Positions 26,904 through 27,528 of a stretch of 64,000 nucleotides of DNA are shown piece after piece. The DNA is from Escherichia phage phAPEC8. The stretch lies in the sequence record NC_020079.1. One strand, 5' to 3'. The translations under genes and the position numbers were made by a program. How positions within the stretch are numbered: the first letter of the stretch is position 1; each line of letters starts with the position of its first letter. The notes beneath the pieces are model-generated. The model did no database searches, was not told the DNA's origin, and was given only the letters and a program-made list of their open reading frames with translations.

Positions 26904-26933
26904 TTGACAAACGTATCCTTCATATGTTAGGAT
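26904..26933 (+). promoter_or_regulatory. sigma70-like promoter upstream of the tRNA operon leader
   Basis: CTATTGACA -35 box, about 17-nt spacer, weak TAnnnT -10. Confidence 0.4.
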
Positions 26934-27142
26934 ACGTTCATCAAGTGTGGTAACAGGGTCGTTGACTTTTGTTAAGAGGGGCTTGCACTGCGGTAGTGTT
27001 AGAGACTACTTCTTCAGAGGTTAGCTACCAAAGAGGAAAAGGAATAGTCTCGGCTCAAGAACTTTTACGCTGAAAGTTGGGCTTGGTCTTAGAGAATGTA
27101 GCGGTTCTCTACAATCGTCAGCGTCTCTGTTACCACATTTAT

Positions 27143-27217
27143 GGCCCTGTAGCTCAATGGGAGAGCTGTCGGCTCATAACCGATAGGTAGCTGGATCGAA
27201 ACCAGCCAGGGCCACCA
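27143..27217 (+). tRNA. tRNA-Met (anticodon CAT)
   Basis: Hand-folded cloverleaf: acceptor GGCCCTG/CAGGGCC, anticodon loop CTCATAA, encoded CCA; T-loop ATCGAAA. Confidence 0.7.
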
Positions 27218-27219
27218 AC

Positions 27220-27294
27220 GTCTTTATGGTGTAATGGATAGCACAGGAGTCTTCTAAACTCTTAGTCAAGGTTCGATTCCTTGTAAAGACACCA
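27220..27294 (+). tRNA. tRNA-Arg (anticodon TCT)
   Basis: Acceptor GTCTTTA/TAAAGAC, anticodon loop CTTCTAA, T-arm CAAGG-TTCGATT-CCTTG, CCA. Confidence 0.7.
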
Positions 27295-27490
27295 GAACAT
27301 TTTAACATGAATTAGCTCAAGTGATTTGAACCCACTACTGATCATGGTGGCAGAGAATGAGGCAAGTATGTCAGACATTATAAACAAAGGCCACGGTTAC
27401 ATTAGAAGACATAAATGCTCGAAGAGCACCGTTCGTGGAGAACGGGGGTTGGTGGAGTCACCATTCATGGTAAAATGTTTTAAAAAACTA

Positions 27491-27520
27491 TTGACAACTA
27501 ACATTATTTTATGTTAGATT
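27491..27520 (+). promoter_or_regulatory. sigma70-like promoter inside the tRNA operon
   Basis: CTATTGACA, 17-nt spacer, TTAGAT/TAGATT -10; a few nt upstream of tRNA-Ser. Confidence 0.45.
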
Positions 27521-27528
27521 ATAAGTAT

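Follow-up and report, generated by a model that had tools for sequence, protein, structure and literature searches.

A conserved structured RNA, apparently derived from tRNA-Ile(GAU), in the tRNA operon of Escherichia phage phAPEC8

Between the tRNA-Arg(UCU) and tRNA-Ser(UGA) genes in the tRNA operon of Escherichia phage phAPEC8 lies a stretch which a first-pass annotation described as a structured spacer; it noted nested inverted repeats, a poor open reading frame (ORF) and an internal promoter at the end, and proposed a small RNA or a processing scaffold. What does this stretch specify? We examined it in a window of 64,000 nucleotides (nt) of record NC_020079.1; all coordinates are positions in that window, and the element discussed here and the tRNAs all lie on its + strand. 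We consider it likely that the region 27295–27480 is a conserved noncoding RNA which evolved from a tRNA-Ile(GAU) gene and which would be excised and stable; more speculatively, it might act in trans as a look-alike of that tRNA. Judged by its sequence this element of approximately 186 nt would be a discrete RNA gene, not a generic spacer.

The window genome is that of a Phapecoctavirus (phAPEC8-like, Stephanstirmvirinae), and 651 bases around the element match approximately 190 phage records, many of them at 99% identity or more. By blastn the element is 97–100% identical among Phapecoctavirus copies of the window type, 81% identical in a second type within that genus (phiWec188, phiWec181 and PsgM04F) and 69–70% identical over 27299–27481 in Seunavirus, which belongs to another subfamily (Vequintavirinae) and in which PVP-SE1, 4MG, SSE121, FENT2, LNA4 and Cronobacter phages carry it. 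Orthologous tRNAs of the two genera show a similar degree of identity (63–77%). In a local comparison of the whole operon with the Seunavirus loci the element was the only non-tRNA piece conserved, and the other operon spacers found no match. The Seunavirus copies have a different tRNA neighbourhood, in which the element fills the whole gap between two tRNAs: its start is 4 nt downstream of another tRNA's CCA in those copies whose upstream flank was read, and in all copies read it ends 2–4 nt before tRNA-Leu.

Blastn of the phage collection with two query types revealed homologues in Phapecoctavirus and Seunavirus only. Two pattern scans of IMG/VR recovered four loci, all of known types; in one of JGI metagenomes the only hit (L021) was GC-rich, had no tRNA in its vicinity and is put down to chance; and one of 100,044 GTDB species genomes gave 0 hits. 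In E. coli genomes neither the full element nor the tRNA-like scaffold described below had a blastn match.

The element folds with a predicted minimum free energy of -53.9 kcal/mol; dinucleotide shuffles average -38.8 +/- 3.8 (z = -3.98), and 0 of 200 folded equally well. Since the reverse strand folds about equally well, the strand has to be assigned from other evidence. All four inverted repeats of the first-pass annotation are present in the sequence, two of them with corrections. CATGAAT and ATTCATG had been placed one base off; they occupy 27306–27312 and 27463–27469 and are part of a longer repeat (27295–27312 with 27463–27480, 18 positions, 94% complementary) which has a single A.G mismatch at 27305/27470. 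The CGTTC/GAACG repeat encloses GTGGA, the seven-base loop originally given having counted bases twice. CCAC/TGGTGG (CCACT 27332–27336, GGTGG 27346–27350, loop ACTGATCAT) and TGGTG-GAGT-CACCA (GGTG 27451–27454, CACC 27459–27462, loop GAGT) stand as they were.

The structure used below is an RNAalifold consensus on 14 sequences to which one hairpin was added by hand, and a covariance model (R1) matches 27295–27482 at 199.7 bits. As controls for covariation the pairing partners were slid along the alignment. In the model-fitted alignment of 15 sequences, 96.8% of the pair cells are standard pairs (38–50% when slid), 16 of the 48 pairs have changed on both sides (1–6 when slid) and the covariation score is 0.347, compared with at most 0.089 for the slid versions. 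A MAFFT alignment gave much the same picture: 94.6% paired cells (37–46% slid), 14 two-sided pairs (1–5 slid) and a score of 0.292 (0.083 or less slid). Independent single compensations can also be read within Seunavirus, in helix P6 (C-G to U-A in LNA4, G-C to U-A in SSE121) and in helix P5 (G-C to A-U in FENT2, LNA4 and 4MG). The helices thus covary across Phapecoctavirus and Seunavirus, and the proposal of a small RNA, together with the comparative folding suggested for checking it, is borne out by a structure conserved with compensatory changes in two phage subfamilies. G.U occurs in 83 of the 720 pair cells, including an invariant one in helix P4; because these would become A.C mismatches on the other strand, the RNA appears to be encoded on the + strand, like the tRNAs. 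Two records marked "UNVERIFIED" (L016, Salmonella phage 21, and L007, Salmonella phage 41) carry extra indels and broken pairs, for example GGAGTCGACAGCGAA in L016; these are probably sequencing or assembly errors, and they slightly reduce the pair counts.

The RNA is closed by helix P1. Its outer part, P1a, begins one base after the CCA of tRNA-Arg and pairs a leader (27295–27304) with a trailer (27471–27480), with compensatory changes in three pairs (C-G to A-U, U-A to C-G and A-U to G-C, in either direction). A27305 is unpaired opposite G27470, and this internal loop at the acceptor end is conserved in the alignments, being A.G in the window, G.A in the phiWec type and a 2x2 mismatch in Seunavirus. 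Further inwards, P1b joins CAUGAAU (27306–27312) to AUUCAUG (27463–27469) in an acceptor-like helix of 7 base pairs (bp), one of which shows a compensatory change between C-G and A-U. With its 18 positions and one internal mismatch, P1 could stack on the 4-bp helix P7.

Next come the equivalents of U8 and A9 and a D-arm-like hairpin, P2 (27313–27331; UA GCUC AAGUGAUUU GAAC), with invariant columns. The segment UUAGCUCA in this region is almost invariant, and variation in the P2 helix is limited to exchanges between A-U and G.U. P3 (27332–27350) mimics an anticodon arm, with the stem CACUA/UGGUG and the 7-nt loop CUGAUCA at 27338–27344; GAU occupies 27340–27342, a C stands at position 37, and C27332-G27350 corresponds to the 26-44 pair. 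Four of the five stem pairs have undergone compensatory change, with no variation in the loop, and in the RNAalifold consensus the 5-bp stem bears the invariant 9-nt loop ACUGAUCAU. A hammerhead-like reading of CUGAUCA was dropped, as that core would need CUGAUGA and Rfam lent it no support.

An insertion domain of approximately 95 nt (27351–27445) occupies the position of a class-II variable arm and contains three helices, P4 to P6, with compensatory changes. It opens with the invariant junction GAGAAUGAG (27353–27361), which leads into P4 (27361–27364 with 27416–27419), the helix with the invariant G.U. The long and variable hairpin P5 (27379–27385 with 27395–27401) covaries and carries the loop AAAGGCCAC (27386–27394); in the phiWec188 type it is a different long hairpin, with the loop GUGUACAA. 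The window and UP17 have a C at 27400, which makes an A.C mismatch in P5; ETEC-TG, DE16 and SF1-1 carry a U there and form an A-U pair. A second junction seen in the alignment, CGAAGAGCA (27420–27428), precedes P6 (27429–27445), in which CCGUUC (27429–27434) and GAACGG (27440–27445) enclose GUGGA; P6 covaries, and its consensus is CCGUUC-GNNGA-GAACGG.

The domain is followed at 27446–27462 by the variable-loop-like GGGUU, at which Seunavirus reads AGGUC as does E. coli tRNA-Ile, and by P7, a T-arm remnant (GGUG-GAGU-CACC). The P7 loop has 4 nt, compared with the 7 of a T-loop, and P7 abuts the acceptor-like 3' strand without a linker. This strand, AUUCAUG, is completed by G27470 at the discriminator position (27463–27470); no CCA comes after it, the next bases being GUAAAAUG, whereas all the other operon tRNAs whose 3' end could be read in the sequence encode CCA. 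RNAalifold indicates a candidate pairing, UCAU with AUGA, between the P3 loop and GAGAAUGAG, and a long-range GCUC/GAGC pairing is another candidate; all the bases involved in either are invariant.

From what did such an RNA arise? The sequence points to a tRNA-Ile(GAU) gene. When the insertion 27351–27445 is deleted, the resulting spliced scaffold can be aligned to tRNAs, and among 135 distinct tRNAs from all loci tRNA-Ile(GAU) came first, or tied for first, with all three sequence types. E. coli ileV scored 22, 17 and 18, where the means were about 4 and the standard deviations (SD) about 2.5 (for the window type 22 against a mean of 3.8, SD 2.4), and for two of the three types phage tRNA-Ile genes were next best. 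The cloverleaf core is present at 27306–27350 and 27463–27469, with a 7-bp acceptor, U8, a D-arm, a 5-bp anticodon stem and a 7-nt loop. IleV reads UA GCUC AGGUGGUUA GAGC G CACCC CUGAUAA GGGUG AGGUC GGUGG UUCAAGU CCACU; with bacterial ileV and phage tRNA-Ile(GAU) the element has in common U8A9, a 9-nt D-loop, the anticodon stem, six of the seven anticodon-loop positions including GAU (C32-U33-G34-A35-U36-C37-A38 in tRNA numbering), the variable loop AGGUC and the T-stem GGUGG. In Seunavirus AGGUCGGUGG agrees base for base with the variable loop and T-stem of ileV. The tRNA-Ile encoded in the window itself has GAAC C CACGA CUGAUAA UCGUG, and 19 of these 22 bases (D-stem 3' strand and anticodon arm) are those of the element. 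In its reduced-arm (metazoan mitochondrial) mode ARAGORN calls Ile(gat) on the spliced scaffold of all three types.

The departures from tRNA-Ile are no less definite. They comprise the insertion with P4–P6, the 4-nt T-loop, C37 in place of A37, the missing CCA, a D-loop (AAGUGAUUU or AGAUUAUUU) which lacks GG and hence G18G19, and an acceptor helix prolonged by the leader-trailer pairing of P1a, which itself covaries. The tRNA models fail: ARAGORN at 80–90% thresholds finds nothing within the element, its bacterial mode rejects the spliced scaffold down to 60% of threshold, and Rfam RF00005 has no match at E<=10 in 27295–27528 or in the Seunavirus and phiWec copies. Because of the 4-nt T-loop, the absence of CCA and the leader-trailer pairing, the element is not a usable tRNA and would be neither aminoacylated nor active in decoding.

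How then might it be made, and for what? The operon promoter at 26904 would drive transcription of the element along with that of the tRNAs. Its release might occur during processing of the flanking tRNAs, either through 3' maturation of tRNA-Arg or through cuts by RNase III, RNase E or RNase P at or near the closing helix. That long helix would shield both ends, so that the RNA could accumulate as do RNAC and RNAD of T4. As to function we can only speculate that the RNA works in trans, its invariant anticodon loop and junctions imitating tRNA-Ile and thereby perhaps binding or titrating a factor that recognizes this tRNA, or that the RNA associates with itself through palindromic loops. A trans-acting mimic of tRNA-Ile is our preferred guess; its stems drift, but the anticodon loop and the junctions do not vary. 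Clusters of phage tRNAs have been reinterpreted as counter-measures to host defences which attack tRNAs, and loop mutations in phage tRNA genes are proposed to counter host nucleases directed at the anticodon loop (PMC10264068).

Several points weigh against this reading. Model R1 found no element in the tRNA regions of rV5 (Vequintavirus) and PHB05 (Justusliebigvirus), and the element is therefore dispensable for this phage group as a whole. A search of the 64-kb window for antisense targets of three conserved loops and junctions returned the element alone, and thus no target or partner. There are only three main sequence types, with an effective sequence number of 1.34, and hence few independent covariation events; moreover the structure was derived from the same sequences in which the pairing was tested. 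The tRNA comparison set held only two E. coli tRNAs (ileV and alaV), and part of the similarity to tRNA-Ile lies at positions common to many tRNAs. Finally, that the RNA is excised and stable is what we infer rather than observe.

The element might instead act purely in cis, as a processing or insulation module whose closing helix brings the 3' end of tRNA-Arg near the downstream sequence and offers a site to RNase III or RNase E, the excised piece being discarded without any function in trans. RNase III processing stems, such as those in rRNA operon spacers and the T7 R sites, are formed by about two turns of double-stranded RNA from flanking sequences. In every non-tRNA spacer of the operon a long closing helix runs right up to the neighbouring tRNA ends, and the spacers at 26943–27140, 27709–27835, 28176–28261 and 28567–28663 fold with z = -5.3, -4.0, -4.2 and -5.8 relative to shuffles; the closing helix of the element, moreover, covaries. 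However, conservation of the other spacers stops at the subfamily, whereas in the element the loops and junctions (ACUGAUCAU, GAGAAUGAG, UUAGCUCA and GGUGGAGUCACC) are invariant and the inner helices covary across two subfamilies. A mere cleavage stem would not require invariant inner parts, and processing accounts for P1 only. We give this explanation a minor share of our confidence. The processing scaffold of the first-pass annotation is accordingly not borne out as the sole role of the element, and the idea suits the other, non-conserved spacers of the operon better.

With equal reserve one may suggest that the RNA is a tRNA derivative which assembles with itself. The replacement of A37 by C turns the tRNA-Ile loop CUGAUAA into CUGAUCA and thereby creates the 6-nt palindrome UGAUCA. 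Known kissing-loop dimerization sites have nine-nucleotide loops laid out as 2+6+1, and the P3 loop fits this layout. The tip of the P5 arm is palindromic as well, being GGCC in the window type and Seunavirus and UGUACA in the phiWec type with its replaced arm. The chance of such palindromes in random loops of those lengths is 7%, 35% and 5%, and the argument, made after the fact, provides a lead. If it were correct, each molecule would possess two self-complementary loops and could form dimers, chains or closed rings; it would then be, on a small scale, an RNA of the same sort as the ROOL and GOLLD assemblies of phage tRNA islands, and might sequester a tRNA-binding host factor or serve as a nuclease-resistant decoy of tRNA-Ile. 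In the window as a whole GGCC (31 occurrences, 91 expected), GTAC (64, 226 expected) and TGTACA (6, 21 expected) are strongly depleted and GATC is not (261, 226 expected), which suggests avoidance of specific restriction sites.

Could the element simply be a decaying tRNA-Ile pseudogene with an insertion, its structure inherited rather than selected? The truncated T-loop, the missing CCA, C37 and the absence from sister genera would all agree with decay, yet at approximately 30% divergence 97% of the pairs are formed and 16 have changed on both sides. Some of the two-sided changes lie in parts foreign to any tRNA ancestor, namely the insertion domain and the leader-trailer helix; the P5 arm replaced in the phiWec type again forms a long hairpin, and the loops are invariant while the stems change. 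We regard a functionless relic as improbable.

It is more doubtful still that the insertion is removed like an intron to yield a decoding tRNA-Ile. This idea draws on the cloverleaf remnant with anticodon GAU and on the Ile(gat) call which the mitochondrial mode of ARAGORN makes after deletion in silico. The spliced form, however, would still lack a 7-nt T-loop, G18G19 and CCA and would retain C37 and the paired leader and trailer; as noted above, it is rejected in the bacterial mode, and the phage already has a normal tRNA-Ile(GAU) at 28918–28991. Rfam group I intron and ribozyme models have no match at E<=10 in the window region or in two further loci (L002 and L003, the latter from PVP-SE1), and 95 nt is too short for a group I intron. 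An intron-containing tRNA reported by ARAGORN with the -i option was an artefact joining the 3' part of the element to tRNA-Ser(UGA).

Least credible is a small protein gene: the poor ORF pointed out at the start (63 residues, 27326–27517, or 57 from the ATG at 27344) exists and is called "hypothetical protein" in ETEC-TG and WPEC phages (few, PHANOTATE-based records), but among the translated homologues it is interrupted by in-frame stops, both in UP17 and SF1-1 at 97–98% identity and in five Seunavirus sequences (FENT2, LNA4, 4MG, SSE121 and KE22), the conserved 5' and 3' segments are out of frame with each other in Seunavirus, no Shine-Dalgarno motif precedes ATG 27344 and the RefSeq records annotate nothing at 27326–27517, so that the stops and frame shifts favour RNA and the coding reading was rejected.

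Non-tRNA or tRNA-like stable RNAs inside phage tRNA operons are a kind already known. The T4 genes rnaC (species 1, 139 nt) and rnaD (species 2, 119 nt) specify such RNAs, co-transcribed with the tRNAs; they lie directly downstream of tRNA-Arg on the same strand, and our element likewise follows a tRNA-Arg. Their products accumulate late, and their role is unexplained after 50 years (PMC9697503). Unlike the element, which keeps an anticodon arm but has a crippled T-arm and no CCA, the T4 RNAs end in CCA or CA and have a real T-arm, the canonical GGGUUCGAAUCCC in rnaC; conversely the paired leader and trailer and the 95-nt inserted domain are features of the element which set it apart from them. 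Model R1, run with filters off on T4 positions 69000–74000, gave nothing above noise over rnaC or rnaD, and the relationship is best viewed as one of analogy, not homology.

GOLLD and ROOL are RNAs of phages and prophages, often situated beside tRNA islands, which assemble via kissing loops (bioRxiv 10.1101/2024.12.08.627333). The element resembles them in its location within a phage tRNA island and in its palindromic loops, assembly being a possible lead; they are 3–4 times larger, and neither Rfam model matches the element at E<=10. The Y RNA-like YrlA and tmRNA fuse a tRNA-mimicking module to another domain and close it with a long helix. These retain a T-arm and have no anticodon arm, the opposite of what is seen here, and the Rfam models of YrlA (RF02553) and tmRNA have no match on the element; weak YrlA hits (about 20 bits, gathering score 69) fall on true tRNAs elsewhere. 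An Rfam scan, one of the checks proposed for this locus, matched no Rfam 15 family to the window, Seunavirus or phiWec copies, either at the gathering threshold or at E<=10.

What is new, then, is a family absent from Rfam 15, unrelated to T4 RNAC and RNAD and confined to two genera, and we came across no earlier description of its architecture, in which a tRNA-Ile has a giant domain in the variable-arm position, a shortened T-loop and an acceptor end sealed by pairing. It would constitute a second, independent case of a non-tRNA RNA in a phage tRNA cluster, one in which the tRNA-Ile origin is still legible, and a concrete example of how a very large insertion in the variable arm can remodel a tRNA gene into another RNA. 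In annotation, it does away with a spurious "hypothetical protein" and supplies an RNA family missing from Rfam 15. The clear division into conserved and variable parts, in phages which are easily grown and of therapeutic relevance (phAPEC8-like and PVP-SE1-like), makes the question of what noncoding RNAs do in tRNA operons approachable by experiment.

The tRNA operon (27143–29148, + strand) contains 11 tRNAs called by both ARAGORN and Rfam, and according to the ESCO5 annotation it lies between an early region (RNA ligase, phosphoesterase) and a late module (spanins, terminase). The upstream neighbour, tRNA-Arg(UCU) (27220–27294), ends directly before the element. The downstream neighbour, the non-canonical tRNA-Ser(UGA) (27530–27619), is the twelfth tRNA of the operon. 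Neither ARAGORN at default settings nor the Rfam tRNA model detects it; ARAGORN recovers it at a 90% threshold, and the tRNA-Sec model gives it 37.4 bits (gathering score 47). Its D-stem has 3 bp and its acceptor contains a mismatch, and in the records of relatives its counterpart is labelled tRNA-Ser. Further along, 27619–28178, which includes the 27709–27835 spacer, matches Justusliebigvirus PHB05 at 69%.

Between the element and tRNA-Ser(UGA), on the + strand, is a sigma-70-like promoter site (27491–27520) with TTGACA at 27491–27496, an 18-nt spacer, TG, and TAGATT at 27515–27520; it agrees with the consensus at 10 of 12 positions, and transcription is predicted to start 1–3 nt before the tRNA. 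The internal promoter seen earlier at the end of the spacer is therefore there as a promoter-like site, as a neighbour and not as part of the RNA: it is kept in the phiWec188 type and in PHB05, and no such site stands beside the Seunavirus copies, where tRNA-Leu follows the element directly. Three promoter-like sites on the + strand combine a perfect TTGACA with an 18-nt spacer (26904–26933, 27491–27520 and 28453–28482), the first two having ACTATTGACAA...ATGTTAG(G)AT in common. Since these lie within or before the operon, internal promoters seem to be present, although across the whole region promoter-like matches are no more frequent than in shuffles. The element is downstream of the site at 26904 and between tRNAs on the tRNA strand; no terminator-like site occurs on the + strand between that site and 27723, and no intrinsic terminator at the 3' end of the element. 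The operon terminator is at 29264–29282. A weak Rfam match to RyhB at 29235–29289 on the + strand (29.4 bits, gathering score 55, E = 0.009), like a weak match to MicA, overlaps this intrinsic terminator and its T run, and both probably reflect mere terminator resemblance.

In PVP-SE1 (L003, approximately 1688–2257) and SSE121 (L008, approximately 490–1010) the tRNA-Leu after the element is cut short at about its first 29 nt (...GAGGCAT), and next comes an insert of approximately 480 nt with an ORF (coding sequence 516–1010 in SSE121); in PVP-SE1 a complete tRNA-Leu is found further on, at 2172–2257. This looks like an insertion with partial duplication of its target, perhaps of the homing-endonuclease type.

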